Positions 3,250-32,569 of a stretch of DNA of 64,000 nucleotides are shown one piece after another. Below the pieces are notes generated by a model, which was not told the DNA's origin, did no database searches, and saw only the letters and a list, made by a program, of their open reading frames with translations. Positions within the stretch are counted from its first letter, which is position 1, and each line of letters starts with the position of its first letter. Source of the DNA: Candidatus Omnitrophota bacterium (GTDB lineage: Bacteria > Omnitrophota > Gorgyraeia > Zapsychrales > Fredricksoniimonadaceae); assembly GCA_903860135.1 (NCBI GenBank), contig CAIOPG010000017.1, forward strand, positions 203,364-267,363, written 5' to 3'. Made by a program: the position numbers and the translations under genes.

Positions 3250-4575
3250 TCACACGATGGATCTTTCATTCTCAATGACGTTGTAGATATCAGTCCGACG
3301 CCCACGATCCCAATCAAGATAAACCTGCCTGGACAGCTCCTTGTTCAACGGCAAAGAAGCCACTTTATTCGCCTGAAATACCTTCAAGACAGCAGGGGCG
3401 TACTTTTCACACAGCCAGCACTCTCCGGGATCTTTGAAGCAAGCCCTCATCCTGTCATATATGGCCGAAAAGTCTTCCTCGCATATATTTCCAAAGGAAA
3501 TGTTAAGGAACTCACAGGGCTGAACATCTCCTTTGGCATTGAGATAAAACCTGTCCGTGCCGCCGGCGGTACAGCCAAACACAAGAGGGTCCTCCTCGAT
3601 GATCTGGGCCGATATGGACGGGTACTCCCTGTACCGCGCCTCATTATTATACGCATGCACCAGTTCTTTAACCTTGTCCAGATCCGCTGCCGTGAAATTT
3701 TCGATCCCCGATTCCAGCCAGGCGCCAGAAGGCTTCGGCTTGATGACCTGCACCAGGCAAGCGCCAAAGTCCCTGGCTTTGGCCATCACCTGCGCGAAGG
3801 CACCATTATAAAAATCTTCCCGCCGGAGGCAGGCATTAAAGGCGACCGGCACATCCGCCGCGTGGCAGCAACGGATACCCTCCTGCAAAATAGCCCAGGC
3901 ATTTTCAGACCCCATGAAGGCATTCACATATTCAGGAACAGCACTATGCAAAGAGAACATGACCCCCGTCAACCCTAAACCTTTAAGCTCCCGCAACCGC
4001 TCCACACTCACCCCGTCACCTGTTGAATTGATCCATATCTCGGCGCCGCCATTGATAGACCCGCACAACCTCTTCAACCGGTCGTAGACCAAAAAAGGAT
4101 CCCCGCCTTCAATGTTAAAGAACGCCACGCCCTTCGCCTGCATGCGCTCAACAGCCTTAACCATAAGATCAATGGACACATCTTTGCCCGTGTCTTTTCT
4201 CTGATAACAATGCGCGCAGTGGTGCCGGCACGCCGATGTCACCGAGATCAGGGCCGTTGTGCACGGCAATTTGGCATCAAACACCATGAACTTGCGGCAA
4301 GCCGTGAAGAATGCCTTCGAAGGAAATCCGGGGATATATAATCCCACCCGGACATAGCGCCCGATGGCGACAAATTTGTTATGATAGATCTTGGACAAAA
4401 AATACAATAGCCGCTTCAGGAACATCCTATATCTGCCCACCGATAGCCTGCCCTTTAAAAGCTCCGGTAAGTAATAAAAGAAAATACACACCTTCAACTT
4501 AATGGAGAACAAAACCTTGTTGAATCCTGTGACATTCTTCACGCTGATCATAAGCCCCCTGCCTGCCGGTACCAT
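3250..4575 (-). CDS. radical SAM protein with C-terminal SPASM/twitch-like Cys cluster
   Basis: CRHHCAHCY (CxxxCxxC) radical SAM motif; C-terminal CTAGGTDRF...CEFL..C cluster; last gene of overlapped operon. Confidence 0.7.
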   Translation of the reverse strand: MVPAGRGLMISVKNVTGFNKVLFSIKLKVCIFFYYLPELLKGRLSVGRYRMFLKRLLYFLSKIYHNKFVAIGRYVRVGLYIPGFPSKAFFTACRKFMVFDAKLPCTTALISVTSACRHHCAHCYQRKDTGKDVSIDLMVKAVERMQAKGVAFFNIEGGDPFLVYDRLKRLCGSINGGAEIWINSTGDGVSVERLRELKGLGLTGVMFSLHSAVPEYVNAFMGSENAWAILQEGIRCCHAADVPVAFNACLRREDFYNGAFAQVMAKARDFGACLVQVIKPKPSGAWLESGIENFTAADLDKVKELVHAYNNEARYREYPSISAQIIEEDPLVFGCTAGGTDRFYLNAKGDVQPCEFLNISFGNICEEDFSAIYDRMRACFKDPGECWLCEKYAPAVLKVFQANKVASLPLNKELSRQVYLDWDRGRRTDIYNVIENERSIV

Positions 4576-5582
4576 TTGACCGTATTCCTTATCCCCTCAT
4601 CAAGGCTATAACGGGCCCTGAAGCCAAGGACTTCTTCGGCCTTGTGCGTGGCATATTCAATATTGTCATAGAACATATTCACCCGCCCGCGCGTCAACAG
4701 GGGCGGCGCTTTCATCTTTAACAATGTATAAACCAGCTCCATCAGGAAACCCGCCGGATAAACAAGCCATTTAGGCAACAGCAGCGGCTTCTTCACACCG
4801 GCATAACGGCAAAACAGTGAGAATATATGATCCATGCCGGCACAATCCGTGTCCGCAATGATCAGGTGCTGCACCCCCCTCAACCGCCGGATGAACGCCA
4901 GATAATAGGCCTCGGCAAGATCCGGGGCATAGATCACATGGAACTTGTTCTTGCGCGACCCGGGAGCAACCGCAACCCCCTGCTCAACGGACCTGATATA
5001 TTCCAAAAATACCGTATGCCGGCCATTCTCTCCGTAAACCCATACCGGATCGAGCACGGTTAGATTGATTGCTTCACGCCGGGCAAAGTCCATGGCACGT
5101 TCAGCCGCCAGGCATTTTGTATCACGGTAATGATTCAAACAGCACGGGAATATCCTGTCGAGAAAATAGGGATAATGCGCCTGATACGGTGAAGCCTCAT
5201 CTTTGACCTTGAACGAAGGCTCTTCCCCGTACACCGCATTGGTCCCTGTCATGATCACATCCTTGATCCCGTTCGCCACACAGGCTTCAAGGACATTCAA
5301 GGCCCCCTCAACATTCGTCTGATAAAAAGACTGGTACTCTCCCCAGTCTTTAACATACCCCGCATTATGAATGACAAAATCATGCCCTTGTAACGCCTCG
5401 ATCAACGACGCCCTGTTGCCAATATCTCCATATTTATATTCAACCGCATACCCTTGAATATCGGAAAGATCACTGCCCCGACGGACAAAACAGGTCACGG
5501 CCACCCCATGCCGGGTGAACAGGCTGACGAGATGGCTGCCGATAAACCCGTTAGCACCTGTGATCAATACGTTACGCTTCAT
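4548..5582 (-). CDS. NAD-dependent epimerase/dehydratase family (extended SDR) protein
   Basis: N-terminal VLITGANGFIGSHLV Rossmann motif; YxxxK region; 344 aa. Confidence 0.75.
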   Translation of the reverse strand: MKRNVLITGANGFIGSHLVSLFTRHGVAVTCFVRRGSDLSDIQGYAVEYKYGDIGNRASLIEALQGHDFVIHNAGYVKDWGEYQSFYQTNVEGALNVLEACVANGIKDVIMTGTNAVYGEEPSFKVKDEASPYQAHYPYFLDRIFPCCLNHYRDTKCLAAERAMDFARREAINLTVLDPVWVYGENGRHTVFLEYIRSVEQGVAVAPGSRKNKFHVIYAPDLAEAYYLAFIRRLRGVQHLIIADTDCAGMDHIFSLFCRYAGVKKPLLLPKWLVYPAGFLMELVYTLLKMKAPPLLTRGRVNMFYDNIEYATHKAEEVLGFRARYSLDEGIRNTVKWYRQAGGL

Positions 5583-6855
5583 GTTGTAGCTTTCTCAGGA
5601 GGACACCCGCATTGTGCCCGCCAAACCCGTAGGATGTGGATATCGCCGTATTAACTTCCGCCTCGATCGACGTGTGGACAAGGTTCAAATTCTCACGCGG
5701 ATCAGCCACGCCATTGCCGTGCACACGCGATGCCTTGATAGCCAGGGCCGTCACGGCGATCTCCAGCGCCCCGCTGGCGCCCAGCGTATGGCCGAGGATC
5801 CCTTTGGTTGAATTCACATAAGGCTGATCTGCCCGTGGACCAAAAATAGCGGCAATGGCATCGGCCTCAATGCTGTCATTGACAGCGGTCCCGCTGCCAT
5901 GGGCGTTAAGATAATCAATCGTCTGCCCCTGTTTGAGATCCCGTAATAATCGCCGGATCTGAGCGCCCGAAGGATCCATCTGGACAATATTATGCGCATC
6001 ACTGTTGCTTTGAAAATCAGCGATCTCCGCGTAGATCGCCGCCCCCCTGTTTAAGGCATGCTGATATTCTTCGAGCACAAGAACGCACGCGGCTCCTTGA
6101 GCGAACAGAAATCCTGTGCTTGTCTTTGAAAAAGGATAAGGAACGCCGTCAGCAGACCGGGTAAGGACCCCGAGCACATCAAAGCCCCGCATGATGCCGC
6201 CCATACTATCAGCCATACATTCCACGCCGCCGGTCAATACAACATCCTGCGGGCCATTCCTGATCGCATGATACGCTTGCCCAACGGCCACGGTCCCCGA
6301 CGCGCACGCGGCATTGACCGTATAACTGGGGCCCTTTAATCCATGCGCAATAGATATCCAGCTGGCCACCGCATTGGGCATCAGCATGGGTACAACCATG
6401 CGATTATAACGGACTTGCTGAATATCCATGGCAGAGGGGATTTCACTCTTATCCTTCACGATATGCGACAAGTAAGAACAAAAACCGGTTTCAAGGCTGC
6501 TCATCCCGATACCAACGATCACCCCGGCATCCATAATGTCCGGCGCTACAAACCCGTCCTCACGGCGGACAACAGAAAAACCGGCATCCTTCAAGGCCAG
6601 GGCTGCCGCGGCCAGAACCAACTTGTCTTCATCCTGCATGATCTTATTGTAATAAGAGGGAAACCCGTAGGCATCAAGATCAACGTGAGGACAAGGGCTG
6701 TAATAACGCGACTTGAACTGATACCCGCGTTCAAAATTCCCAGGTATCTCCCTGATACAACGCCGCCCATCAAGAATACCTTCGAGGAAATCCTTTTTCC
6801 CGACGCCTGTTGATGTGACCGGCCCGAGCCCGGTGATCACAACCCGGCGCATCAT
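5572..6855 (-). CDS. beta-ketoacyl-[ACP] synthase (KAS I/II, FabF-like)
   Basis: Active-site NAACASG Cys, HGSGT and GHTLGASG His motifs; 427 aa. Confidence 0.8.
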   Translation of the reverse strand: MMRRVVITGLGPVTSTGVGKKDFLEGILDGRRCIREIPGNFERGYQFKSRYYSPCPHVDLDAYGFPSYYNKIMQDEDKLVLAAAALALKDAGFSVVRREDGFVAPDIMDAGVIVGIGMSSLETGFCSYLSHIVKDKSEIPSAMDIQQVRYNRMVVPMLMPNAVASWISIAHGLKGPSYTVNAACASGTVAVGQAYHAIRNGPQDVVLTGGVECMADSMGGIMRGFDVLGVLTRSADGVPYPFSKTSTGFLFAQGAACVLVLEEYQHALNRGAAIYAEIADFQSNSDAHNIVQMDPSGAQIRRLLRDLKQGQTIDYLNAHGSGTAVNDSIEADAIAAIFGPRADQPYVNSTKGILGHTLGASGALEIAVTALAIKASRVHGNGVADPRENLNLVHTSIEAEVNTAISTSYGFGGHNAGVLLRKLQHEA

Positions 6856-7868
6856 GGCTGCTCCTTCAAATAACGGACAAGGGCCGCCAGGTAATCCTGG
6901 CGTTGATCAAAATCCCGGGCGCGCGCCACAAGCCCCCCCAGATCAACGCGTCTTTGCCCGTCGCACAAGCGCTTTGTTGCCGCCGTGATCTTGCCGATCC
7001 TGAAGAAGGTCAACCCTTCCTGGCTTGCCCTCGACAAGAACAACCCTTCATCCGCAGGTTGTACGGTAAAAAGCAACTCATACTCTCCGGCCTCGCCCAG
7101 GAACAGCAATTCTTTGGGCAGGGATAAAGCCGCCGCCCCCAACACACCGGCGTCAATATAAGGCAAGTCTGCCACCTCATACCCTACGCCATTAATGTCA
7201 GCCAGCGTATTCAACGCATTAAAAACACCGTCGCTGGTGTCTATGCAGCACCTGGCATAAAGGCCTATGAAGGCAGCTGCCTGAACACGCAACGGGAATC
7301 GGTTGCGGATCATGCCGGCCAACAACCGTAAACGGCCATCATCCGCGTAAAGCTTGAGCACCGCCTCGACATTTCCCAGCCCGATCCTGCCAGAAATATA
7401 AATTGAGTCCCCGACCTGAGCCCCTTTCCTGCCCAAAGGATATCTTCCCGGACTGCCTATAACAGCGGCGGTATAACGCCAGTGCGCAGCTTTCCCGAAA
7501 TCACCTCCCATAAAAGCCGTGCCGGCCTGCGCGAGCACATCAGCCACTCCTTGTGAGAACTTCTGAATATAATGCTCATCCCAGGCCTTGCTCACGGCCA
7601 TGGCATGGCCATAGAGGCACGGCTTGCCCGCGCAGGCAAGGATATCGCTGATCCCCCCGACAGCAACATTCCACCCCAAAGAGTACGGATCATCTTCACG
7701 CAACATGTCTTCGGCGGAAAACTCATCCATCGTAAAAAGAAGTTGCTTGTCATCCACCAAAACAACTTCCGCGTCAGACTCAAAAGGCCGGCTCAAACGG
7801 CAACGATCAGCCGGGAACATGCTGTCGATCAGGCGAATCGTTCTGGCCTCGGCGTCAATCTTACGCAT
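6852..7868 (-). CDS. AIR synthase-related (PurM-like superfamily; ThiL/HypE-like) ATP-dependent enzyme
   Basis: PurM-like N- and C-domain pattern (DDAAVL-like DAEVVLVDD, GGDT-like GGDFG); 338 aa. Confidence 0.5.
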   Translation of the reverse strand: MRKIDAEARTIRLIDSMFPADRCRLSRPFESDAEVVLVDDKQLLFTMDEFSAEDMLREDDPYSLGWNVAVGGISDILACAGKPCLYGHAMAVSKAWDEHYIQKFSQGVADVLAQAGTAFMGGDFGKAAHWRYTAAVIGSPGRYPLGRKGAQVGDSIYISGRIGLGNVEAVLKLYADDGRLRLLAGMIRNRFPLRVQAAAFIGLYARCCIDTSDGVFNALNTLADINGVGYEVADLPYIDAGVLGAAALSLPKELLFLGEAGEYELLFTVQPADEGLFLSRASQEGLTFFRIGKITAATKRLCDGQRRVDLGGLVARARDFDQRQDYLAALVRYLKEQP

Positions 7869-8820
7869 GGATCAGCTCCAGCTTATCCTTGGCCATGGTC
7901 ACCCCGCATGGCAGAAAACCCTGGGGATCCCCGTCAAATTCCACTTCGACCGCAGGCTGATCGGCCTTGACATCAACCCTCCGGGCATACGCAAGAGAAA
8001 TTTGCCGGCTGTTGCTGATCGGTTTCCCGCTATAGACAGCCATCAGGCAATGCGGCACGTGCCTCCAGGCGACATCTTTGACAGCTAATAAATAAAACCG
8101 TCCATCCCCTTCGATCAAGGTGCCGTTGACCTTGATGCCGGAGGCGATATGCCATGTTTTTCCTATGGAAAGATTACACAATCCCGGCCATATCTCTGCC
8201 CTGCCGTCACAGGACACAGCTAATTTTAAACGACGGTATTGCCTGAACGACCTGATAATAGCCCTGAGCGTTCCTACGCTATCCCCCCATCTTTTCCTGC
8301 CCCCGGCATTAGCCTCTCGGGCCACCGAAGCCCCCAGGCCGATATTGACGCAACAGGCAAAATAACGCGTCACACGCTCCGGCACGCCCTGCCCGGGACA
8401 CCCATCAGCGCCAGCCGTGTTCAAGGTTATTTGCCCCAGCTGGATCTGCGTTGTACGCCCCGCCAGGAGCACGTCGAGCGATCGCTCTATAGCCCCATAA
8501 GGAACCGCATAGCTTTTACAGAAATCCGGGCTTGTTCCGGTATAGATAACACCCAAACTGGCCCTGGAGAGCCTGGATCCGTTCTCATCGTAAAACCCGT
8601 TGATGACCCTGTTGATCGTGCCATCCCCCCCCACCGCAACGACCACATCATAGCCCGCCCTGTTGGCTTCTTTCGACAAGGTGCACGCATCGTGCAATGA
8701 TCCCGTTATCGCGCATTCAAAGATGACTTTCCGCGCCACCAACAAAGAACGCAGGCGCGCGATCAGCGGCGCGCTCTGCCCATGCCGCGACCCTGGATTA
8801 AAAATAAAGAAATACCTCAT
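7861..8820 (-). CDS. lipid kinase, diacylglycerol-kinase catalytic domain family (YegS/BmrU/ceramide-kinase-like)
   Basis: FIFNPGSRHG start and VAVGGDGTINRVING motif typical of DAGK_cat. Confidence 0.65.
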   Translation of the reverse strand: MRYFFIFNPGSRHGQSAPLIARLRSLLVARKVIFECAITGSLHDACTLSKEANRAGYDVVVAVGGDGTINRVINGFYDENGSRLSRASLGVIYTGTSPDFCKSYAVPYGAIERSLDVLLAGRTTQIQLGQITLNTAGADGCPGQGVPERVTRYFACCVNIGLGASVAREANAGGRKRWGDSVGTLRAIIRSFRQYRRLKLAVSCDGRAEIWPGLCNLSIGKTWHIASGIKVNGTLIEGDGRFYLLAVKDVAWRHVPHCLMAVYSGKPISNSRQISLAYARRVDVKADQPAVEVEFDGDPQGFLPCGVTMAKDKLELIHA

Positions 8821-10004
8821 ACGGCCGTCATTCTCCTGCCAATGGACTGAAACACATCGAGGACCCTGCCCACCGTGCCCTCGGACAAATTGGCTCCGGC
8901 GATCAATCGTATCTTGTTCTCATGCACCGGCACCGATGGAGGAACAAACGGTGTTACCAGAATATTGGCCTCATGGATCATTTTCGCCAGGCGCGCGCAA
9001 TCATCCAGATCCCTGACCATGATCGACGTGATCGGCGCACTCCCGTCTGTCACATTAAAACCGCTGGCAACAAGGCCTTGGCTGATCATCCTTTTGTACC
9101 GCCACATCTTTTCACTCAGGGCCGGAAACTCAGCATCGATGATATCGAGGACCGCTTCCACACCGGCAAGTACTGGCGGCGGCAAAGCGGTCGAATAAAT
9201 AAAAGCGGGGCATGAATACTTCAAATACTCGATAAACGCTTTCCTGCCACCGACAAAACCGCCGGCATTGGCCAAAGCCTTGCCCAAAGAGGCCGTGTAT
9301 ATCCCCTCGAAATTAACAACATTCTTTTCTTCCAAAACCCCCCGGCCTGAACGGCCGAGCACCCCGATCCCGTGGGAATCATCAATGACCGGCACCGCGT
9401 TGAATTGCGTGCACAACCGGATGATCTCATCACAAGGGGCCAGGCTCCCTTCGGTCGAAAAAACCGACTCGGTCACCACAAAGACCCGCCTGTACATTTC
9501 CGTCTTTGAAAGGACCTTTCTCAAATGATCCATATTGTTGTGCAGGAAAGGCCTGATCTTACACCCGGCCAGGCGTACCCCCTGGATGAGCGACGCATGC
9601 GCATAATGGTCAATGATGATCAGGTCTTCGGGCCCGGCCAATGACAGGAAGATCGCGCCATTGGCCTGATAAGCTGACGGGAAAATAATACCGGCCTCCA
9701 CCCCCGCGAACGTTGCCAGCCTTTGTTCCAGCCGCGTCAGGATCGCCATGGAACCGGTGGCTATCGGCGTGCCGCACATCGACGCTCCATAGCGCCCTGC
9801 GGCCAGCGCTATCGCCCGGGCAACGCGCGGGTCAGCGGCAAGGCCAAGATAATTATTAGCGGCCAGATTGATAAAGGCCGTGCCGTCAATGATAATGGGA
9901 TCCCCCAGGCTCGACTCAATATGGGCATAATACGGATTGAAATCATATTTTTGCGTCAAGCTTTTGTCCACCACCAGCCCGGTATAAAAAGGTTCGCGCG
10001 CCAT
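8817..10004 (-). CDS. alpha-oxoamine synthase family PLP enzyme (serine palmitoyltransferase / 8-amino-7-oxononanoate synthase / Kbl-like)
   Basis: NYLGL substrate-loop motif, class-II aminotransferase fold length 395 aa, PLP-Lys region; adjacent ACP. Confidence 0.8.
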   Translation of the reverse strand: MAREPFYTGLVVDKSLTQKYDFNPYYAHIESSLGDPIIIDGTAFINLAANNYLGLAADPRVARAIALAAGRYGASMCGTPIATGSMAILTRLEQRLATFAGVEAGIIFPSAYQANGAIFLSLAGPEDLIIIDHYAHASLIQGVRLAGCKIRPFLHNNMDHLRKVLSKTEMYRRVFVVTESVFSTEGSLAPCDEIIRLCTQFNAVPVIDDSHGIGVLGRSGRGVLEEKNVVNFEGIYTASLGKALANAGGFVGGRKAFIEYLKYSCPAFIYSTALPPPVLAGVEAVLDIIDAEFPALSEKMWRYKRMISQGLVASGFNVTDGSAPITSIMVRDLDDCARLAKMIHEANILVTPFVPPSVPVHENKIRLIAGANLSEGTVGRVLDVFQSIGRRMTAV

Positions 10005-10255
10005 CAGGGCTCCTTGAGGTCAGGATAATGCTGTTGCAGGCGCGCGACAATATCGGCCACATGAGCAATCCCGATAAAGTCCTTTTCCGCGATCGTGATA
10101 CTGAATTCATCCTCGAGGGCATTGATGATGATGAGCATGGCAAATGAATCGACCCCCAGGTCATGCCGCAGGTCCGTCGCGGGCGTGATCGTGGTCCGTT
10201 CTTTCCCTTCAAGATTCTTTTCAATGGTCCTGATGACCCTGTCTTGCAAGCTCAA
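10004..10255 (-). CDS. acyl carrier protein
   Basis: 83 aa acidic protein with LGVDSF phosphopantetheine-attachment-like motif; start overlaps AOS stop. Confidence 0.65.
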   Translation of the reverse strand: MSLQDRVIRTIEKNLEGKERTTITPATDLRHDLGVDSFAMLIIINALEDEFSITIAEKDFIGIAHVADIVARLQQHYPDLKEP

Positions 10256-10270
10256 GGGCGCCTCCTCTGG

Positions 10271-11491
10271 TTAAACATCCACCGCGCGATAACACCGCGT
10301 CGGCTGATGACTATCGGTCATGACCGCACACCTGTTACAGTTCAGGCATTTGGCTTTCCAGCCGTGATCCGCGATCAATTGATCAACGAGATCCGGTTCA
10401 CTGATAAACGGCCGCGACAAACCAACCATATCCGTTGCACCCCGTTCAACGGCAGTGGACATCTCTTGCCCTGTCCTGAAGCCACCAACAGAAATAATGG
10501 GGATCGCCGTGTGCTGTTTGGCCTGCCTGGCATAAGCCAGATTGTACATCGGAGAGAACAGCCTGATACCCGGCCTCATGAAGGGATAAAGCACATACCG
10601 GCGCCATAACCGCCCCAGGATCGATGCCGTCTTGTATTTCGGGTTATAGCGCCAGATGGCATCGAGCGGTACTGTCTGCCCCCTGAATATGTTCAAGGCC
10701 CGTTCCATGGTGCCACAACTGATCTCAATGGCATCCACCTTCATTTGATCAAGGAAACGCACCAAATGAATGAGCGGTGCCCCCTCCAAGCCATGCTGAG
10801 GCTGGTCATCGCCGCTGATCTTCACCCATAATGGAAAATCATGGCCACAGCGCTCCCTGACACGTTCAATGATCACTTTCAAAAACTGCGGCCCGATCCC
10901 GGTCTTGCGATCTATCCCAAAAATATCCCGACGGTCATTGATCGACGGCAAAAGGAATTGATGCACCAGATACCCATGCGCCGCATGGATCTGCACCCCA
11001 TCAAAACCTGCCTTTTGACATCTCAAAGCCGCTGTGGCAAAACCTTCTGCCAGCGCCCAGGCTTCGCTGGTTGTCAAGGCTTTCACCTTGACGCCAAAAT
11101 ACGCAGAACTCTGGCTGGATGCCCCGCGTGCCCAGCCACCCACGGCGCGGGCCGACGTCTGCCGCCCGCTATGCGCGATCTGCATGAGCACCTTGCCGCC
11201 ACGGGCATGGACCAGGCCGGTCATGGTTTTATACAGAGGGATCTTTGCGTCATCCTCGATCCCCGCCTGCCCCGGTTGCATCGCCCGCCCGCAAGGCGTG
11301 ACATACGCAAATCCCGTCAACAAAGCACCGATATGCTGCCCGGCCAAAGCCGCGTAAAGATCAAGGTATGCCTTTGTCGGCCGTCCGTCATCGTCGCACA
11401 GCCCTTCAAACGTCGCCGATCTCACGATCCGGTTCGCCAGGGTCAGGCGGCCTGTGGCCACGGGCTGAAAAAGTTTATCCATACGCCTCAT
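10271..11491 (-). CDS. NADH:flavin oxidoreductase, Old Yellow Enzyme family
   Basis: HAAHGYLVHQFL motif, TIM-barrel OYE signature, 406 aa. Confidence 0.75.
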   Translation of the reverse strand: MRRMDKLFQPVATGRLTLANRIVRSATFEGLCDDDGRPTKAYLDLYAALAGQHIGALLTGFAYVTPCGRAMQPGQAGIEDDAKIPLYKTMTGLVHARGGKVLMQIAHSGRQTSARAVGGWARGASSQSSAYFGVKVKALTTSEAWALAEGFATAALRCQKAGFDGVQIHAAHGYLVHQFLLPSINDRRDIFGIDRKTGIGPQFLKVIIERVRERCGHDFPLWVKISGDDQPQHGLEGAPLIHLVRFLDQMKVDAIEISCGTMERALNIFRGQTVPLDAIWRYNPKYKTASILGRLWRRYVLYPFMRPGIRLFSPMYNLAYARQAKQHTAIPIISVGGFRTGQEMSTAVERGATDMVGLSRPFISEPDLVDQLIADHGWKAKCLNCNRCAVMTDSHQPTRCYRAVDV

Positions 11492-12495
11492 GACCTCGGA
11501 TTGGCATGCAGGTCAAACAGGAAGCCTACCAGCATATACGACATGAGAAATAACCATAACGCCAGCTCGGGATTGAAGAAAGCCACGATCGTTGCCTCAC
11601 CGCAGACACACGCGCGGAAATTCATTTTCAACGACGCATAGGTCTTTTCTCCGGTAGCATGGCAATAGTAAAGGAACCCGGTCCAGGCCTGCATCAAAAT
11701 TGTCAAACAGCCTAGGATCACAAAAGTGCTGTTGATCGACACCTCGAGCATATGCGTGGCGCGCAAGATGAAAAATGTTACCGTCGGCAGGAATGTCGCA
11801 AAAAGCGCTATCAGGCGCGCCTTATTGATCCCGTAGCGGACAACAAGGGTTTCCTTCCCGGCCGCTTTATCCCCTTCATAATCCTTGAAATAGGTGTAGA
11901 ACGTCATCAGGCCGTTAATGATCAGGATAAGCAATAATGCGGAAGTACGGTGCGACGCCAGGAAGGATGCCTGGGTCGGGCCGCAGGCATAGAACCCGTA
12001 GAAAGGCGCCATGGTGATCATCAGCCCGAAAACAATATTACCAAGGATGCCATGCCCTTTGGCGTATTCATAAACAATGTTAAATATCACACCGGCCAAA
12101 AGAAAGATCACCGCCACCGGCTCCAGATACAACCACGTCACCGCCGCTGCAAGGATCAACATAACGATCGAAAGCCCCAGCGCCTTGTTGGCATCGAGTT
12201 CACCGGTCACCATGGGGCGTTCGGGCGCGTTGATCCTGTCCTCTTTAAGCCCCAGGTAATCATTGATGATCTGGTTGATCCCCCAGCTTAAAAACAGCAG
12301 GCACAGGATAACGATCTTCTTTTCATCACCAGGCAGAACTTCAATCGTCCTTTCCGGATGATGCCTGGCCAGCAATTCATAATAAGCCACGCCGATCCAC
12401 CCGGCTATCCCGGTCACAAAGGAATAATAAAGCCGCATTGATTTGATATATGCCGTGATGAACTTGATAAAGACCTCCCTGGTATCAGACCCCAT
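11488..12495 (-). CDS. UbiA-family aromatic/lipid prenyltransferase (integral membrane)
   Basis: Polytopic; first Asp-rich motif NDYLGLKED and second DYEGDKAAGKET (DxxxD...G..T) typical of UbiA superfamily. Confidence 0.65.
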   Translation of the reverse strand: MGSDTREVFIKFITAYIKSMRLYYSFVTGIAGWIGVAYYELLARHHPERTIEVLPGDEKKIVILCLLFLSWGINQIINDYLGLKEDRINAPERPMVTGELDANKALGLSIVMLILAAAVTWLYLEPVAVIFLLAGVIFNIVYEYAKGHGILGNIVFGLMITMAPFYGFYACGPTQASFLASHRTSALLLILIINGLMTFYTYFKDYEGDKAAGKETLVVRYGINKARLIALFATFLPTVTFFILRATHMLEVSINSTFVILGCLTILMQAWTGFLYYCHATGEKTYASLKMNFRACVCGEATIVAFFNPELALWLFLMSYMLVGFLFDLHANPRS

Positions 12496-12505
12496 CGTTA
12501 TAGAA

Positions 12506-12997
12506 TCAAGCCTTCAACCCATGGAACCACGTGTGCATCATGCCCGCCAGGGCCTTTTGCTCTGACGAAGAGATCTTGCCCATCAAATGTTCAACGGTCT
12601 TGATATACCCCGGCCAGGCGTCATCAAGCAGGCGCGACCCGCGCGCGGAGACCCGGATCACCTTGACCCGCTTGTCGCCGGAACGCGACGAACGCTCGAT
12701 CAATTTCTCACGCTCCAGTTTGTCCAGCAGGCGCGTCATGTTCGACGCTGTGACCATGAGCCGCTTGCCGATATCACACTGACTCAACCCGACATCCCCG
12801 CCCTGATGCTTGATGATCATCAGCACATTCATCTTCGCCGGCGTCAGGTCAAAGGTGTCCAGGTATTTCGAGACCTTGTCGAACAGGACGGTATACACCA
12901 GCACCAGCCCGTAAAAAGCTTCCTCGTAATACTGCCCCTTGCCCGCCTTGATCCCGAAAGCTTCCAGATAATCCATAGCCCCCTCCATGTCTGGCAT
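12506..12997 (-). CDS. MarR family transcriptional regulator (longest ORF extends to 13144 but overlaps miaB; likely start at MPDM/MEGAM)
   Basis: Winged-helix MarR core (LSQCDIGKRLMVTASNMTRLLDKLEREKLIER...DKRVKVIRVSARG). Confidence 0.7.
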   Translation of the reverse strand: MPDMEGAMDYLEAFGIKAGKGQYYEEAFYGLVLVYTVLFDKVSKYLDTFDLTPAKMNVLMIIKHQGGDVGLSQCDIGKRLMVTASNMTRLLDKLEREKLIERSSRSGDKRVKVIRVSARGSRLLDDAWPGYIKTVEHLMGKISSSEQKALAGMMHTWFHGLKA

Positions 12998-13028
12998 AAC
13001 AATATCACAACTTAGTTGATATGTCAAC
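12986..13028 (-). promoter_or_regulatory. candidate sigma70-like promoter (TTGACA-N17-TATTGT) with imperfect inverted repeat TATCAAC..GTTGTGATA (putative MarR operator) immediately at marR start
   Basis: Read on minus strand at miaB/marR junction: TTGACATATCAACTAAGTTGTGATATTGTTATG. Confidence 0.3.
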
Positions 13029-14348
13029 AATCTCGCCTTTGAGCTGATGCGGGGTGGCGCGGGTGATGCGGGCGTTGAGGATATCTCCGGGTTGGGCGAT
13101 GCCGTGCGGCAGGACAACGATCTTGTTGGCGTCATTGCGGCCATAAAGGGCGTTGGCCTTGATATCCCGCGCGCTTTCGATCATGACAGGCTGTATCCGG
13201 CCAACAAGAGCTTTGTTTTTCTGAAGGGAAATATCGGTCTGGAGCCGGTTGATCCGCACGATGCGCGCGGTCTTTTGAGCTTCGGTAACATCATCCTTGA
13301 GCGTTCGCTCGGCCTCGGTGTTGGGCCTGACGGAATATTTAAACATGAACGCCGTATCAAACTGAACCTCGTGCATGAGGCGGACCGTATCTTCGAACTC
13401 GATATCTGTTTCCGTCGGAAATCCAACGATAATATCCGTCGATAAGGCGATGTCCGGGCATGCACGGCGCAAGCGTCCGACCAAAGAAATAAAATCAGCC
13501 CCCGTATAGTGCCGATTCATCAGGGCCAGGACCCGGTCATGACCCGCCTGCAGAGGTAAATGCACCTGTTTGCAAACTTTCGGATTTTCAGCAAGGACAC
13601 GGATCAGGCTGTCCGGAAAATCCTTGGGATGCGGCGATGTAAAACGGATACGCTCGATGCCCTTGACCGTTGATACAGCGCTCAGCAAAGCGGCAAAATC
13701 CTGATCTTCATGCTGATAAGAATTCACATTCTGCCCGAGCAAGGTCACCTGTTTGAAGCCTTCATCGGCCAGGCGCTTCACCTCGTCGAGAATATTGCTC
13801 ACCGACCGACTGCGTTCACGCCCGCGGGTAAAAGGCACAATGCAGAATGAACAGAAATTGTTGCACCCGCGCATGACCGCCACCCAGGCATTGATCCCTG
13901 AAGTGCGCGCCGGGTACACATCCGCATAGGTCTCAAATTCCGACAAGGTCACATCATAGCCGGAATGTTGATCGCGGGCATGGCCCGATTGACACCCCGC
14001 CGCCAGCGCCGACGCCAATAGTCCAGGCAACCGTTTATAACTGTCCGGCCCGGCCACCACATCGAGCGCCAGCGCCTTATCCTCGATCAACTCCTTGCGC
14101 AACCCCGTCGCCATGCACCCCAGGATCCCGATCACCACCGGCCGCCCCTGACGCCGGTGACGGATCTCATGCACATGCCCATACACCTTACGGTGCGCAT
14201 TCTCCCGCACCGAGCACGTATTCAAAAGGACAATATCCGCCGCCGCCTCATCATCCACAAACACATACCCCGCCTCAATAAGGATCGCCCTCACGAGCTC
14301 GGAATCGTATTCGTTCATTTGGCACCCGAAAGTCTGTAAAAATATCAT
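13005..14348 (-). CDS. miaB: tRNA-2-methylthio-N6-dimethylallyladenosine synthase MiaB
   Basis: MIFLQTFGCQMNEYDSE N-terminal MTTase domain, CNNFCSFC radical SAM motif, TRAM C-terminus. Confidence 0.85.
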   Translation of the reverse strand: MIFLQTFGCQMNEYDSELVRAILIEAGYVFVDDEAAADIVLLNTCSVRENAHRKVYGHVHEIRHRRQGRPVVIGILGCMATGLRKELIEDKALALDVVAGPDSYKRLPGLLASALAAGCQSGHARDQHSGYDVTLSEFETYADVYPARTSGINAWVAVMRGCNNFCSFCIVPFTRGRERSRSVSNILDEVKRLADEGFKQVTLLGQNVNSYQHEDQDFAALLSAVSTVKGIERIRFTSPHPKDFPDSLIRVLAENPKVCKQVHLPLQAGHDRVLALMNRHYTGADFISLVGRLRRACPDIALSTDIIVGFPTETDIEFEDTVRLMHEVQFDTAFMFKYSVRPNTEAERTLKDDVTEAQKTARIVRINRLQTDISLQKNKALVGRIQPVMIESARDIKANALYGRNDANKIVVLPHGIAQPGDILNARITRATPHQLKGEIVDISTKL

Positions 14349-14406: not shown

Positions 14407-15078
14407 TCATCTCAATTCATCAACAGAAAATTCCTTCCCATGAGATGGAAATAATATTTTCGCCCCGCTACTGATAATCCTTGCCCAGCTTTCTTTTACG
14501 ACAATGTAATCTTCAGCCTCGATCGGGTACGGCTTAACACCGAATATGTTCATGGCGGCATCTCCGCAATAAGCTTTACCGTCATCCGTAATCAATGTTA
14601 TAGAATCTGCGCTGTGCCCGGGTGTATCGACAATCACACCATTAATACCGATCTCTTTCAAAACCTCTCTGCCGTCATCCCCAATCACGATATCCGTGTC
14701 ATTTGTAAATATAGGTGAATACGAAATCCTAATGAACAACCTCAGTGCTCTATCGAGCAACTTCAAAGAAAGATTGTACTGTTTAGTCTTTGCTATCTCC
14801 GTGTTTCCATTCTTCAATAAATCTACCTGTTTCTTATGCAATATCAATTTTGCGCCCATTATCGTTCGCAATTCGTTCACAAGCGCGGCATGGTCATGGT
14901 GATGGTGTGTGACCATTATATAGTTAACTTCCCTCGGATCTATACCAGCCTCATACATCTTTCTTAAAAACACGCTCATCTTGCCGTTCCACCCGGCATC
15001 TATCAACAAATATCCACCCTTTGCCCGCAAAAGGTAATAATTGGTATCACTATATCGTATCGTTTTGTGCTCACCCAT
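14407..15078 (-). CDS. MBL-fold metallo-hydrolase
   Basis: VTHHHHDH metal-binding motif, 223 aa. Confidence 0.7.
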   Translation of the reverse strand: MGEHKTIRYSDTNYYLLRAKGGYLLIDAGWNGKMSVFLRKMYEAGIDPREVNYIMVTHHHHDHAALVNELRTIMGAKLILHKKQVDLLKNGNTEIAKTKQYNLSLKLLDRALRLFIRISYSPIFTNDTDIVIGDDGREVLKEIGINGVIVDTPGHSADSITLITDDGKAYCGDAAMNIFGVKPYPIEAEDYIVVKESWARIISSGAKILFPSHGKEFSVDELR

Positions 15079-15134
15079 AATTCATTTCCGAAATTATTGC
15101 TCGTCCATCGGTTATAATTAACGGGACACAATAC

Positions 15135-15413
15135 TTATTTCCCCATCCGCCATTTGGCTGGCTTCCCCTTGCCAAGACAAACGATCTTCTTTTCAGCCTT
15201 GAGTGTCCGGAAGACTTTACGGATCATATCAGGATCGATGCCGGAACACGCCCCCCTAACTTCAGTCATCGAAAAATCACCCTGCTGTTTCAGGATCACA
15301 TCCCGAACGATTTCGGTTTTTGCCCCTCTGCGAACAGACAACTCTCCCGCCCGTTCACTGAACTCTTTATACGCTGTCAAAACAGTCACAAGAAAATAAT
15401 GCACCCACGGCAT
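15135..15413 (-). CDS. hypothetical protein (92 aa)
   Basis: ORF only; basic C-terminus; no recognisable motif. Confidence 0.25.
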   Translation of the reverse strand: MPWVHYFLVTVLTAYKEFSERAGELSVRRGAKTEIVRDVILKQQGDFSMTEVRGACSGIDPDMIRKVFRTLKAEKKIVCLGKGKPAKWRMGK

Positions 15414-15530
15414 GACATTGTGACGGCTCTCATGCTATTGACGGGAACTTATATTTAGAGTTTTATCAATAATAGTGTCAGTTCTCGACTACCCGATGCC
15501 TTGCAGGCACTTGACTAATAATTCCCCATG

Positions 15531-16526
15531 TCAATTCAATTTATTGATCAAATTCACAACCAGCGCCGCTATAACATCTTTTTCCTTTGCCTGACTCTCG
15601 GCGATCAGAAGTGTTATCGCGACCAGCGCATTATCCGCGATGCGCTTGCCCCCGTCAGCCTTGTACAGTATCCTGTTCCGATCAAGGAACCACACGAACA
15701 GGGCGGCCGCAATGCGCTTATTGCCGTCAGAAAATGCATGGTTCTTAACGACCAGATAAAGCAAATTGGCCGCCTTTTCTTCCACGCTGGAATAAAGATC
15801 TTTCCCGCCGAAGGTCTGGTAAACAGCACCCAGGGCACTCTTAAAGGAGGCGTCTTTCTCATTGCCGAACAAGCCGCTGACCCCAAATTTCTGCCGCATC
15901 TGGTCGATCACCCTTAAGCCTTCTTCATAGGTCAACTGATAGCACTCTTTAGCGGTAGACGACTTGATCCGGGTCCGCCCGTGATCATAATCATCCAGAA
16001 CATCCAGGCCATAACTGTAATCACGAATGACCTCGAACAACCCTTTAGCTTCATCGCTAGTCAAAGCCTTGCGCTCGCTCACATCCGCCAGCAATTTCAC
16101 TGCCTGCTGAAGGGTCTTTAGACTGGCCGTATGTTCTTTAAGCCTCTTATCATTGATCGTATACCCCTGAATCAAATGCTGCTTCAAGACATTCGTGGCC
16201 CAGATGCGAAATTGTGTCCCGCGCTTTGATTTAACCCGGTAACCAACAGAGATGATAACGTCCAAGTTATAAAAGACGGTCTCGTACGCTTTACCGTCGC
16301 TAGCAGTTATCCGGAAATTCCGGATAACTGACGACTTAACGAGCTCTTTTTCTTTAAAAATGTTCCCAATGTGCTCATTAATGGTGCGTAGATCTTTACT
16401 AAAAAGCTCTGCCATTTGCTTTTGAGAGAGCCAAACAGTTTCATCCTGTAACTTTACCTCAACAGAAACACCTACCCCCTGCTGGCGAAAAACAATCAAA
16501 TCTGTCTTTTTTACTTTATCATCCAT
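15531..16526 (-). CDS. RhuM-family / Fic-Doc domain fusion protein (Doc-like toxin domain)
   Basis: N-terminal RhuM-like region (YNLDVIISVGYRVKSKRGTQFRIWAT); C-terminal HAFSDGNKR Fic/Doc motif. Confidence 0.7.
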   Translation of the reverse strand: MDDKVKKTDLIVFRQQGVGVSVEVKLQDETVWLSQKQMAELFSKDLRTINEHIGNIFKEKELVKSSVIRNFRITASDGKAYETVFYNLDVIISVGYRVKSKRGTQFRIWATNVLKQHLIQGYTINDKRLKEHTASLKTLQQAVKLLADVSERKALTSDEAKGLFEVIRDYSYGLDVLDDYDHGRTRIKSSTAKECYQLTYEEGLRVIDQMRQKFGVSGLFGNEKDASFKSALGAVYQTFGGKDLYSSVEEKAANLLYLVVKNHAFSDGNKRIAAALFVWFLDRNRILYKADGGKRIADNALVAITLLIAESQAKEKDVIAALVVNLINKLN

Positions 16527-18857: not shown

Positions 18858-20627
18858 TTAAGCTCCATGTTGTTTCTCCATCTCTTTGAACATCTTGCCG
18901 ATCGTATCGTTAATCTCGACCATTTTCCGGCATGTATCGAGCAAGGCCTGAAAGATATTGCCGGGATCATCCGTTGGAAGCGTCCCTAAATAACCCTTCA
19001 GATCCATAACAACAGGCGTGTTCAAAAGTCCTTCATTGAGCGCAGCCCAATCTTTAGGCAAAGTAGACAGCGCACTTTCTTCCGCCACGTCCCACGTGCT
19101 TCCGGCTGTCCCGTTGTCGATCCTGGCCTTCACCTCATTGTAAGAACCCATGATGATGCCTTTATCAGGAATATCGTCGATGATCGCCAGCGCAACGGCA
19201 AGCGTTTGACGGGCGCCCTCGACATCTCTTGCCTGAGATTGTGCTTCTGCAATCTCCTGCTTGGCGAGACTGGCTTGAAAGGGCGAACCTTGGATGCTGT
19301 CCGCTGTTCTCAACGCGGCTTCAATGTCCCCGGCGCGGGCCAGCCCTAAAGAAAGATATTGTTTGGCAATGGCTTTAAAATTGGGCTCCGTCGAATCTGG
19401 CATGCCATCAGCGATCACAACGCCATCAGCAAGAGTTTGTAACGCTCCCGCAAGGTCCCCCGCCTTCGTCTGCTCGCGCGCAACCCAATTCTTGGCCGTA
19501 CTTTTCGTGAAAAGATCATGGATGGCATCAACGGTATGAAGCGCCAGCTTTACATCCCCTGCCTTAGCCTGCGCCTCGGCAATGGAACGCAACAAACTGT
19601 CCTTGGTCGTGGCATCCCCGATCAGTTCGAGCGTTCGTAACGCAGCGGCAAAATCACCCCGTTTGAGCTGCGCTTGCGCGACCTTTTCTTTCGCAGAGCT
19701 TTTCGAACTGTACTCATCTTCCTGGATGTTATCGACGGTTTTAAATGCCGCCGCGTCATTTCCGGCCCTGGCCCAGAGATCCGCGACATTCACCAGATCG
19801 AAATATCTTGAATGCGCGTCCATGCCCTGGTTGGCAATTTTTTCGACGAGCGCAATGAAACGGGACAGGGCTCGCTCGCGAAGTTGCCGGATCTGTTCTT
19901 TGATGATTAACGCCCGAGAGGAATCAGGATCAGCGGCCAAATACGCGCCATACCACGCCATAGCCCTGAACTCCCTTCCCGGGATCCTTGATTCTGCCAG
20001 GCCAAGGTTATAGTCAATGTCCGCGTCATCCGGCGCGATCTTGCGCGCTTCTTCAAAGTTCAGGATGGCGGATAGATAATCTTTTTGTTTCGCCGCCACA
20101 TAACCCTTATTCATAGTGGCGTTCACGGCCTCTTGCTGGGAGGGGGCAAGATCAAGAAGATACAACCCGTCTGGAAACTCCATATCCAGAATAAACCGGC
20201 AAACAGTGGCCGCTGACTCCATCCGCACCGCTTCATCTGAATCCACCGAACCGGCATCCATGTCAAACCTGATGGTGTTGCCATTCTGCCAGGTCATATT
20301 TACGACCCGCTCACCCTGCGGATCCTTGGGATCAATGGTCGACGCGCTGATAGCTGCTACGTGCAAAGAATCCAATATAGCCAATATTCTCCTGGCTCGG
20401 GTCGAGCCCTCCCAGACCTCTCCTTCTTTCTGCCGGTGATCCATATAAAGCGCCCGCAGCGTGGAATATTCCGGTGTCTCCTCCATGATCCGCGTTACCG
20501 TAACGGCCAGGGGCCCAAACTTGTCGGCAGGTTGATCTGTCTGTGCCCAGGAAGGAATGCTAGTGGCAGAAGAAATAATGATAAATAATAAAGTGTTCCG
20601 GAAAGACCGGCTTAAAGGCAAACTCAT
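18858..20627 (-). CDS. secreted hypothetical protein with degenerate ~35-aa alpha-helical repeats (K/RAGDxxxALxTxDxI)
   Basis: Signal peptide; at least 4 copies of AGD..AL.T motif (HEAT/TPR-like); first gene of 3-gene overlapped operon. Confidence 0.5.
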   Translation of the reverse strand: MSLPLSRSFRNTLLFIIISSATSIPSWAQTDQPADKFGPLAVTVTRIMEETPEYSTLRALYMDHRQKEGEVWEGSTRARRILAILDSLHVAAISASTIDPKDPQGERVVNMTWQNGNTIRFDMDAGSVDSDEAVRMESAATVCRFILDMEFPDGLYLLDLAPSQQEAVNATMNKGYVAAKQKDYLSAILNFEEARKIAPDDADIDYNLGLAESRIPGREFRAMAWYGAYLAADPDSSRALIIKEQIRQLRERALSRFIALVEKIANQGMDAHSRYFDLVNVADLWARAGNDAAAFKTVDNIQEDEYSSKSSAKEKVAQAQLKRGDFAAALRTLELIGDATTKDSLLRSIAEAQAKAGDVKLALHTVDAIHDLFTKSTAKNWVAREQTKAGDLAGALQTLADGVVIADGMPDSTEPNFKAIAKQYLSLGLARAGDIEAALRTADSIQGSPFQASLAKQEIAEAQSQARDVEGARQTLAVALAIIDDIPDKGIIMGSYNEVKARIDNGTAGSTWDVAEESALSTLPKDWAALNEGLLNTPVVMDLKGYLGTLPTDDPGNIFQALLDTCRKMVEINDTIGKMFKEMEKQHGA

Positions 20628-21655: not shown

Positions 21656-21665
21656 GGGATATCCT

Positions 21666-26677: not shown

Positions 26678-26726
26678 ACTGACCTTTTTAAGTTTAACCA
26701 GAATAGTACCACTTCAAACCCCAAGA

Positions 26727-31361: not shown

Positions 31362-31449
31362 ATTATATATATAACATATTAATTTAAAACGATGTTGTCT
31401 AAACTGGAAATAATGGAAAAGACCACCGGAACCGAGACAGGAAAGGATT

Positions 31450-32568: not shown

Positions 32569-32569
32569 T

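Follow-up and report, generated by a model that had tools for sequence, protein, structure and literature searches.

A widespread bacterial gene cassette that combines a UbiA-superfamily prenyltransferase with an old yellow enzyme and may encode a lipid pathway

The subject of this report is a pair of adjacent genes, encoding a UbiA-superfamily membrane prenyltransferase (UbiA) and a flavin ene-reductase of the old yellow enzyme (OYE) family, located in a 64,000-nt stretch (the window) of contig CAIOPG010000017.1 from Candidatus Omnitrophota bacterium (GCA_903860135.1); all coordinates are positions in this window. An earlier note on the same DNA had proposed that the two enzymes add and then saturate an isoprenoid chain as part of an amino-lipid operon. 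The pair is real and conserved far beyond chance, and the best explanation of its context is a nine-enzyme, translationally coupled operon headed by a MarR-family regulator, in which UbiA and OYE perform two steps of one pathway. The pairing is frequent but derived, and it is not the functional nucleus of the system: the deep core consists of UbiA with an alpha-oxoamine synthase (AOS), a radical SAM enzyme (rSAM), two kinases and an extended short-chain dehydrogenase/reductase (SDR), to which the largest sub-clade has added OYE, an acyl carrier protein (ACP) as well as a beta-ketoacyl-ACP synthase (KAS). The gene content does look like that of an amino-lipid pathway, as the note had held, and UbiA and OYE are connected as members of one pathway; overlooked in the note were the two kinases and the rSAM, which all belong to the core. 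Tentatively, the cassette is read here as a route to a hybrid isoprenoid/sphingoid membrane phospholipid, the second tail of which would be a polyprenyl chain.

Between 10271 and 12495 there are just two minus-strand open reading frames (ORFs) and no other credible gene: UbiA (11488-12495, 335 aa; PF01040, E 2.9e-29, 102.5 bits against a cut-off of 34.2) and, immediately downstream as the note had stated, OYE (10271-11491, 406 aa; PF00724 Oxidored_FMN, E 3.6e-49, 168 bits against 27). The UbiA stop and the OYE start overlap in TCATGA (ATGA), with a second in-frame ATG 9 nt further on; the long ORFs of the opposite strand, such as 10841-11641 (+), are nested within the two genes and are assumed not to be genes. 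The pair belongs to a run of ten minus-strand genes in the order MarR-UbiA-OYE-ACP-AOS-LipK-AIRS-KAS-SDR-rSAM (3250-12976), where LipK denotes a lipid kinase of the DgkB/YegS type and AIRS an ATP-dependent, ThiL-like kinase of the AIR-synthase fold; from MarR through rSAM, starts and stops overlap by 1 to 28 nt or are separated by gaps of 10-15 nt. Downstream of OYE, and all on the minus strand, lie the dedicated ACP (10004-10255, 83 aa; PF00550, 3.4e-10) with its DSF phosphopantetheine site (LGVDSF in the translation), the pyridoxal phosphate-dependent AOS (8817-10004, 395 aa; PF00155) with a conserved SLGKA lysine motif, LipK (7861-8820, 319 aa; PF00781, PF19279) with a GGDGT motif, AIRS (6852-7868, 338 aa; PF00586, PF02769), the FabF-like KAS (5572-6855, 427 aa; PF00109, PF02801) with a Cys-His-His triad, the HpnA/OleD/3-beta-HSD-like SDR (4548-5582, 344 aa; PF01370, PF01073, PF07993) and the rSAM (3250-4575, 441 aa; PF04055, PF13186) with CxxxCxxC. 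The Pfam matches agree with the note in placing ACP, KAS and AOS near the pair.

The first gene of the operon encodes the regulator (12506-12976, minus strand, 156 aa; PF01047 MarR, 1.2e-12) and is separated by a 10-nt gap from the UbiA start. Its ORF reaches 13144, and gene callers working on the identical contig (L001/L002) start it at the equivalent of 12976. Directly upstream of this start, a consensus scan located a sigma-70-like promoter site (12999-13027, minus strand; TTGACA, 17 nt, TATTGT, with a TG extension), which with 10/12 consensus matches is a pattern match only. An inverted repeat serving as MarR operator, sought at 12470-13080, was not found with the settings used, the terminator scan gave counts not above the shuffled expectation, and no Rfam family reached its gathering score anywhere in the window. 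Housekeeping genes border the operon on both sides, MiaB on the upstream side and NadA, MetX and MetW on the downstream side.

The UbiA translation contains, in NQIINDYLGLKEDRINAPERP and YFKDYEGDKAAGK, both peptide strings that had been taken for the two Asp-rich motifs, NDYLGLKED and DYEGD; its motifs are SMRLYY, NDYLGLKED, YEYAK and KDYEGD. Compared with the family expectation (NDxxDxxxD, DxxxD and YxxxK), KDYEGD and YEYAK are present; the first motif exists as a string but is non-canonical, reading NDxxGxxED with Gly in the middle position and Glu-Asp at positions 8-9. This replacement of the middle Asp by Gly occurs in 81/81 aligned sequences (80 family members from related loci and the window), and the canonical Asp is kept in the most distant UbiA sub-clades. 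In a search with the AlphaFold (AF2) model (pLDDT 90.9, pTM 0.89), Foldseek placed nearest the digeranylgeranylglyceryl phosphate (DGGGP) synthase (DGGGPS) of M. jannaschii (MjDGGGPS, 6m31; E 1.3e-8, about 20% identity in the structural alignment), then AfUbiA, ApUbiA, UBIAD1 and the mycobacterial membrane phosphoribosyltransferase, with a probability of 1.00 to 6m31, 4tq3/4tq4, 4od5, UBIAD1 and the membrane phosphoribosyltransferase 8j8j. Among solved sequences the family profile matches only three, 6m31 (1e-9) and two chlorophyll synthases, and BLASTP gives 26% identity to an MjDGGGPS fragment over the aligned part.

The family hidden Markov model (HMM) scores the MjDGGGPS fragment at 44.5 bits, ChlG at 32.7, E. 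coli UbiA at 24.5, MenA at 20.5 and CyoE at 11.4, and the ranking obtained with NCBIfam (June 2026 release, equivalog cut-offs) agrees with it in order: DGGGPS-like models (PRK12882, PRK12883, PRK12884) reach 67-80 bits against cut-offs of 269-353, BchG/ChlG 61-63, 'UbiA-other' 55, MqnP 38, EboC 33, CyoE and the DPPRS model 26, the 4-hydroxybenzoate type 23-25 and MenA 17.7-20, every match lying far below its family cut-off. The segments EDRINAPxRPmxxG and FKDYEGDKxxGK resemble DGGGPS and ChlG, unlike the quinone enzymes, and the family has conserved extensions of its own, the N-terminal SMRLYY and NFRAC.CG near the C-terminus. With a mean identity of 61% over 79 loci from more than 10 phyla, UbiA is the best conserved of the nine proteins (45-55% for the others). 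The clade is distinct and very conserved, nearest to DGGGP synthase and chlorophyll synthase and outside the 4-hydroxybenzoate and menaquinone clades. The quinone prenyltransferases (UbiA/COQ2, MenA, MqnP) are accordingly out as an explanation, with scores far below the cut-offs and no quinone genes in the flanks of 80 loci; the note, which had named a position in those clades with quinone genes nearby as the finding that would speak against it, was right in this respect.

OYE shows the features of its family, namely the PF00724 profile, a TIM-barrel FMN fold and a His-His pair with a Tyr. Its AF2 model (pLDDT 89.7) matches many OYEs in Foldseek at E about 1e-27, and among the 50 matches listed FadH has the highest query-normalised TM-score (TMq 0.78); the best PDB matches are YqjM (1z41) and the N-terminal domain of FadH (1ps9), with other 'thermophilic-like' OYEs also close. 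The catalytic motif HAAHGY is identical to, and aligned with, the HxxHGY motif of YqjM, and in 24 homologues T27, H169, H172, Y174, C382, C385, C388 and C400 are invariant. The four cysteines form a C-terminal motif, C382-x2-C385-x2-C388-x11-C400, at the position of the 4Fe-4S cluster of FadH and trimethylamine dehydrogenase (TMADH), shared also with 2-enoate reductases and BaiCD, and are predicted to be a 4Fe-4S site. Unlike the enzymes of the FadH class (about 640-670 aa), the cassette OYE has no C-terminal FAD/NAD(P)H domains, ending 6 residues past the last Cys, and it carries a conserved insertion (about 276-316, about 40 residues) with many aromatic and basic residues; its NCBIfam matches cover only the N-terminal barrel, the first ~260-290 positions of models 640-770 positions long. 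It differs from both YqjM and FadH in joining the classical OYE site to the predicted Fe-S motif, and its homologues form a dedicated family of about 400 aa confined to the cassette. One of them (P0125, 60% identity) comes from a metagenome-assembled genome (MAG) labelled 'Nanoarchaeota archaeon' by NCBI; the other labelled close homologues listed are bacterial, and the archaeal label is probably due to a binning error or to transfer.

By established OYE enzymology, the His-His pair binds a carbonyl-type activating group, and isolated isoprene double bonds are not OYE substrates; geranylgeranyl reductases (GGRs), the known saturases of isoprenoids, are FAD enzymes of another family. No FAD-dependent enzyme of the GGR/FixC type was matched among the Pfam results of the operon, the reductase of which is the OYE TIM barrel. 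Because the His-His site binds a carbonyl-type activator, the substrate is probably an enone, an enal or an enoate rather than an isolated isoprene double bond. The proposal that OYE saturates the isoprenoid chain is chemically doubtful for a YqjM-type HAAHGY site and is probably wrong. Since OYE has no NAD(P)H domain, a low-potential donor such as ferredoxin would probably pass electrons to it by way of the cluster.

The distribution of the cassette is broad. In a scan of one genome per species, 267 species genomes encode a UbiA relative, and relatives at 55-80% identity number in the hundreds, the labelled ones coming from Omnitrophota, Latescibacterota, Calditrichia, Chitinispirillaceae, Verrucomicrobiota, Spirochaetales and Firmicutes MAGs. 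The best 80 loci were searched with the window proteins by tblastn, and in about 70 of the 80 the nine-gene order UbiA-OYE-ACP-AOS-LipK-AIRS-KAS-SDR-rSAM is kept. This order is found in Omnitrophota, Calditrichaceae, Fibrobacterota, Verrucomicrobiota, Acidobacteriota, Cloacimonadota, Auribacterota, Neomarinimicrobiota, Desulfobacterales and Halobacteroidaceae, as well as in many Clostridia, cultured Desulfosporosinus species and Petroclostridium sp. X23 among them, and the cassette, a self-contained unit, spans more than 10 phyla of anaerobic bacteria; in Bacteroidota it occurs as the circular permutation AIRS-KAS-SDR-rSAM-UbiA-OYE-ACP-AOS-LipK. OYE directly follows UbiA in 74 of the 78 loci with enough downstream sequence, a count corrected at three loci with overlapping or split tblastn matches. 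Two Latescibacterota loci (L003/L016) and the loci L023, L060, L068 and L081 have no OYE beside UbiA, and KAS is missing from several other main-clade loci. L068 is a reduced variant in which ACP, AOS and KAS are also not nearby; since AOS itself is absent there, the missing genes may sit elsewhere in the genome. In one Neomarinimicrobiota MAG (L015, 9998-12193) a lone UbiA-OYE pair stands between the gene of a CCA-adding enzyme and thyX/enolase, and another MAG of the same phylum (L052) carries the full cluster.

When the flanking ORFs within 6 kb of the cluster were grouped, the recurrent genes proved to be regulators lying upstream of the cassette, an XRE-type helix-turn-helix protein at 21 loci, most of them from Firmicutes, and MarR among the Omnitrophota. 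No polyprenyl synthase, geranylgeranylglyceryl phosphate synthase (GGGPS), quinone gene, transporter, head-group transferase, resistance gene or acyltransferase recurs in the flanks of the 80 loci, and tblastn on 72,556 plasmids gave no match. In six Omnitrophota relatives (L004-L009) a conserved ORF of about 125 aa without a Pfam match lies about 30-240 nt after the rSAM gene and an alpha/beta-hydrolase gene lies upstream of UbiA; neither adjoins the operon of the window, where nadA follows rSAM. No paper on this gene combination was found in the full-text literature, subscription-only papers being outside the coverage, and the cassette has apparently never been described.

A profile search of 1.84 billion representatives returned 65 clusters at E <= 1e-30 for UbiA, and further full-length relatives, graded from 27 to 50% identity, keep SMRLYY and NQIxNDYxxxxED. 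The closest of the distant loci (L095, UbiA 46% identical to that of the window) has the full nine-gene order; there an acyl-ACP thioesterase gene (11073-11864) directly follows rSAM, and lptC/lptD come next. At 42% identity, two loci (L096, 6614-13936; L097, 2209-9531) carry a seven-gene version, UbiA-rSAM-LipK-AIRS-OYE-AOS-SDR, with neither ACP nor KAS, in which OYE stands between AIRS and AOS and not beside UbiA; the OYE of L096 is 39% identical to that of the window and keeps HAGHGY and the Cys motif, the last spacing being x10. A role of OYE as enoyl-ACP reductase, working with the dedicated ACP and KAS, is weakened by this version, which has OYE without either of them; the losses of OYE and of KAS are also independent of each other across loci. 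In L090 (7518-20411, GCA_002069785.1; UbiA 31%) the order is MarR, three ORFs of no assigned family, UbiA-rSAM-LipK-AIRS-AOS, three more such ORFs (380, 604 and 319 aa) and SDR, with no OYE, ACP or KAS nearby. None of these ORFs received a Pfam assignment and one has a marginal match to a membrane domain; they are probably membrane proteins, and may replace OYE, ACP and KAS or add steps.

The remaining distant loci are smaller. L092 and L093 (UbiA 27%) have AOS-UbiA-rSAM, L087 and L094 (34-36%), on short contigs, have LipK-SDR-UbiA and rSAM-UbiA, and L091 (8679-10954; 40%) has AOS-UbiA only, no other cassette gene lying within 10 kb on its 53-kb contig. The neighbours of the L091 pair are genes for a TLC-type ATP/ADP translocase, a large GT4 glycosyltransferase and an FGE-sulfatase. 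In the distant sub-clades UbiA is thus always found with AOS, rSAM, the kinases or SDR, and it is from these contexts that the deep core stated above is drawn. The UbiA-OYE unit that the note had singled out is therefore a genuine and frequent pairing that does not persist as a conserved unit in the distant sub-clades or in the seven-gene version.

All nine proteins have intact, conserved catalytic motifs (60-80 sequences), and none of the nine reaches any curated NCBIfam cut-off. AOS is roughly equidistant from KBL, serine palmitoyltransferase (SPT) and BioF: its scores are 305 bits against 426 for bioF, 288 against 460 for KBL and 265 against 640 for SPT, the SPT models as a group giving 178-265 bits against cut-offs of 500-670, with bioF and KBL equal or better, and its PDB matches are KBL (3e-61) and SPT (2.5e-57). 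LipK matches DgkB (7e-13) and then YegS in the PDB, with conserved motifs. For AIRS the best HMM match is thiL (TIGR01379, 115.5 bits against 184) and the best PDB matches are all thiamine-monophosphate kinases (6e-15); it conserves the Asp set that binds Mg/ATP, GRxGAxxGD and DTSDG with the DxSDG serine, and differs from ThiL in falling under the cut-off and in being encoded in a lipid operon without thiamine genes. These catalytic residues, shared with ThiL of the PurM/AIR-synthase superfamily, suggest that AIRS may phosphorylate a phosphate monoester.

KAS scores 270 bits against 494 with fabF and conserves CASG, HG..T and GH..GaSGA. The SDR scores 132 bits against 368 with HpnA and 110-116 against 580 with OleD, its PDB matches being 3wj7 and MoeE5; GxxGxxG and YxxxK are intact, and 3-beta-HSD and, weakly, thioester-reductase profiles also match. 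The rSAM begins with a conserved domain of about 100 aa, and its C-terminal part is of a reduced SPASM/twitch-like kind in which only three cysteines are conserved. Its sole PDB sequence match is SkfB (2e-9); a tetraether synthase (Tes/GDGT-MAS) was considered and set aside, there being no sequence match to any solved structure of that kind.

Taken as a lipid pathway, the cassette would work as follows. The dedicated ACP and the FabF-like KAS would provide a long acyl chain, which AOS would join to a small amino acid to form a sphingoid-type base, a long-chain alpha-amino ketone; the extended SDR would reduce the ketone and the DgkB/YegS-type kinase would phosphorylate the base. UbiA would then attach a polyprenyl group, taken from the general diphosphate pool of the cell, as second hydrophobic tail of this one-tailed phospho-amino-lipid, a step that would parallel the action of DGGGP synthase on geranylgeranylglyceryl phosphate (GGGP) and would stand in for the N-acylation catalysed by bacterial ceramide synthase (bCerS). 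The linkage may be ether- or alkyl-like, as the note had suggested. OYE would contribute an optional tailoring step, in which it would most likely reduce a C=C conjugated to a carbonyl in one of the intermediates, AIRS may add a second phosphate or perform another ATP-dependent activation, and the twitch-type rSAM may introduce a further modification. The minimal AOS-UbiA unit, with no kinase nearby, and the AOS-UbiA-rSAM loci argue that UbiA would act on the AOS product with a donor supplied by the cell, and the loss of OYE in several lineages that keep the rest fits a tailoring step.

Several points weigh against this scheme. The chemistry of the route is read from the proteins encoded. AIRS and rSAM receive no necessary role, though both belong to the deep core; a simple sphingoid-plus-prenyl route offers no obvious enone for OYE; and the Asp-to-Gly change in the first UbiA motif might signal an unusual diphosphate substrate. 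The amino acid used by AOS, equidistant as the enzyme is from KBL, SPT and BioF, could not be read from its sequence motifs, and the SDR may be something other than a ketoreductase, the thioester-reductase/fatty acyl reductase (FAR)-type profile PF07993 matching too. Where a locus is short or split, a gene that seems to be missing may be located elsewhere in that genome.

The closest parallels with known systems are partial. With DGGGPS (EC 2.5.1.42, MjDGGGPS), UbiA shares the fold and the motifs D/E-D-R-I-N-x-P-x-R-P...G and F-x-D-x-E-G-D-K, and likely also the logic, by which a one-tailed phospholipid precursor receives a second hydrophobic tail; it differs in being about 50 residues longer, in the Gly of the first motif, and in its partners, AOS, two kinases, SDR and rSAM in place of GGGPS and glycerol-1-phosphate dehydrogenase (G1PDH). 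Chlorophyll synthase (ChlG/BchG), the second-closest UbiA family, offers together with the geranylgeranyl reductase ChlP an example, in line with the proposal of the note, of a prenyl chain that is first transferred and then reduced; there, however, the acceptor is a tetrapyrrole carboxylate and the reductase an FAD-dependent GGR, whereas here the reductase is an OYE and tetrapyrrole genes are lacking. The ceramide pathway of Caulobacter has functional counterparts of the AOS with its own ACP and of the reductase (PMC11087976, PMC9386255): its SPT works with an ACP of its own (PMC9386255), the keto base receives the second chain before it is reduced, and the reductase CerR has been described as NDUFA9-like and NADH-binding (PMC11087976). 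The diacylglycerol (DAG)-kinase fold of LipK is consistent with the phosphorylation of a sphingoid base or a ceramide. The cassette differs from this pathway in that its AOS falls under the SPT cut-offs and in that UbiA, AIRS, the Fe-S OYE and rSAM have no counterpart there; in the operon no bCerS-type acyltransferase or acyl-ACP synthetase is found, and no acyltransferase recurs in the flanks. The resemblance is one of analogy and not of membership.

Among the rival explanations, an unlikely one makes the prenyl donor unnecessary. According to it, LipK and then AIRS would convert an alcohol made in the operon into its diphosphate, so that UbiA would act on a non-isoprenoid electrophile; candidates are the C1-OH of a 3-keto-sphingoid base, allylic in its enol or enamine tautomer, or a 2-alkenol produced by a thioester-reducing SDR, and the alkyl or sphingoid group would be transferred to a nucleophile, forming an ether or C-N bond, with OYE reducing an enone and SDR a ketone. 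Each core gene would in this way get a role and OYE an enone. AIRS keeps the catalytic residues of ThiL, and its best solved relatives turn a phosphate monoester into a diphosphate; UbiA-family enzymes are well established to need a diphosphate substrate, none of the flanks contains a prenyl-diphosphate synthase, an unusual donor is hinted at by the invariant Asp-to-Gly change in the motif that binds the diphosphate, and LipK and AIRS accompany UbiA in distant sub-clades. Yet one sub-clade has AOS-UbiA alone with no kinase within 10 kb and another AOS-UbiA-rSAM, the Bacteroidota permutation has one kinase gene at each end of the cluster, prenyl diphosphates are present in all cells anyway and require no synthase in the cluster, and we know of no UbiA enzyme with such an operon-made, non-isoprenoid donor. 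Improbable, to a slightly greater degree, is a prenylated heteroaromatic or redox-active small molecule, in which KAS, ACP and AOS would make a pyrrolinone- or alkylpyrrole-type head by cyclisation of a beta-ketoacyl-ACP with glycine or serine, UbiA would prenylate it as an aromatic acceptor and OYE would reduce an enaminone or quinone-like ring; the product, controlled by MarR, would serve as a signal, as an antibiotic or as a lipophilic cofactor. KAS, ACP, AOS and a reductase reproduce the RedL/RedK logic of undecylprodigiosin biosynthesis, most characterised UbiA enzymes prenylate aromatic acceptors, enones and quinones are good OYE substrates that fit HAAHGY, and a MarR or XRE regulator at the head of the cassette is typical of conditionally expressed pathways; against this, KAS and ACP are missing from distant sub-clades and several main-clade loci, the nearest enzymes DGGGPS and ChlG act on acceptors other than aromatic carbon nucleophiles, the core includes a DgkB/YegS-type lipid kinase, and the flanks contain no recurrent transporter or resistance gene.

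The attachment of an isoprenoid by UbiA followed by its saturation, with OYE as a new saturase of non-activated prenyl double bonds, in the manner of geranylgeranyl reductase after chlorophyll synthase or DGGGPS, is likewise improbable. It would account for the adjacent and overlapping UbiA and OYE genes in about 95% of main-clade loci, for the lone pair of L015 and for the dispensability of OYE, which a saturase would share; the predicted 4Fe-4S cluster could supply low-potential electrons, and the OYE insertion (about 276-316) might be a docking element for the membrane or a lipid chain. The classical His-His-Tyr site, however, needs an electron-withdrawing group on the alkene, the seven-gene version puts OYE beside AOS instead of UbiA, and to our knowledge no OYE reduces isolated trisubstituted alkenes. 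Finally, it is very improbable that UbiA is a true archaeal-type DGGGP synthase making archaeol-like diether lipids, even if JGI names many of its homologues 'geranylgeranylglycerol-phosphate geranylgeranyltransferase' and MjDGGGPS is its best solved relative. The DGGGPS scores and the structural-alignment identity given above are low, and no GGGPS or G1P dehydrogenase gene recurs within 6-10 kb of the 80 main-clade loci or is present at the 8 distant loci, the partners of UbiA being AOS, kinases and rSAM. An experimentally active DGGGPS is known from Cloacimonetes, where its gene, belonging to an 'archaeal lipid' pathway, is co-localised with GGGPS (PMC7852524); this different context rules it out as the same system.

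The hybrid phospholipid reading, if true, would mean a widespread lipid or lipid-like metabolite in anaerobic sediments, peat, groundwater and guts, of unreported structure and with easily recognised genes; it could explain some orphan lipids of anoxic environments and provide a genetic marker for their producers, and it would represent a third assembly route for a two-tailed membrane lipid, beside glycerol diesters/diethers and N-acyl sphingolipids. If instead the variant with a lipid diphosphate were true, ether- or amine-linked lipids would have a further, new route and the UbiA superfamily a new class of donors. That the cassette represents a new class of two-tailed lipids, with an amino-acid-derived long-chain base in place of glycerol and an isoprenoid tail added by a DGGGPS-like enzyme, a hybrid of the bacterial sphingoid and the archaeal type, spread by gene transfer over more than 10 phyla, or else a new use of donors by UbiA, is conceivable but rather doubtful. 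Each enzyme comes from a known superfamily, and what appears to be new is the combination. Of interest for enzymology would be an OYE site that is wired to a predicted 4Fe-4S cluster though no NAD(P)H domain is present, and a kinase resembling ThiL that works in lipid metabolism. The gene context indicates that the UbiA clade is not part of the archaeol pathway, and under either reading many 'bacterial DGGGPS homologues' in surveys of the lipid divide would belong to an unrelated pathway; in surveys of bacterial 'archaeal-type' lipid genes, UbiA-superfamily paralogues are known to confuse the picture (PMC6431249). The cultured hosts (several Desulfosporosinus species, among them D. hippei DSM 8344, D. 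lacus DSM 15449 and D. fructosivorans 63.6F, and Petroclostridium sp. X23) make the cassette directly testable.

Other features of the window lie outside the operon. At 14407-16526 (minus strand), between miaB and a TPR-repeat gene, a metallo-beta-lactamase (MBL)-fold gene with a weak Anti-Pycsar Apyc1 match and a RhuM/Fic-domain gene may form a small mobile or defence-related islet; the GC content is 0.42-0.47 at 14-18 kb and about 0.53-0.55 in the operon. Three consecutive ORFs of 589, 343 and 342 aa at 18858-22694 (minus strand) have no Pfam match at E <= 1e-5. At 24977-34015 (minus strand) a two-partner secretion (TPS) pair, composed of a ShlB/POTRA transporter and a 1544-aa TPS/GLUG exoprotein, adjoins two arylsulfotransferase-like genes and lies upstream of them in transcription.

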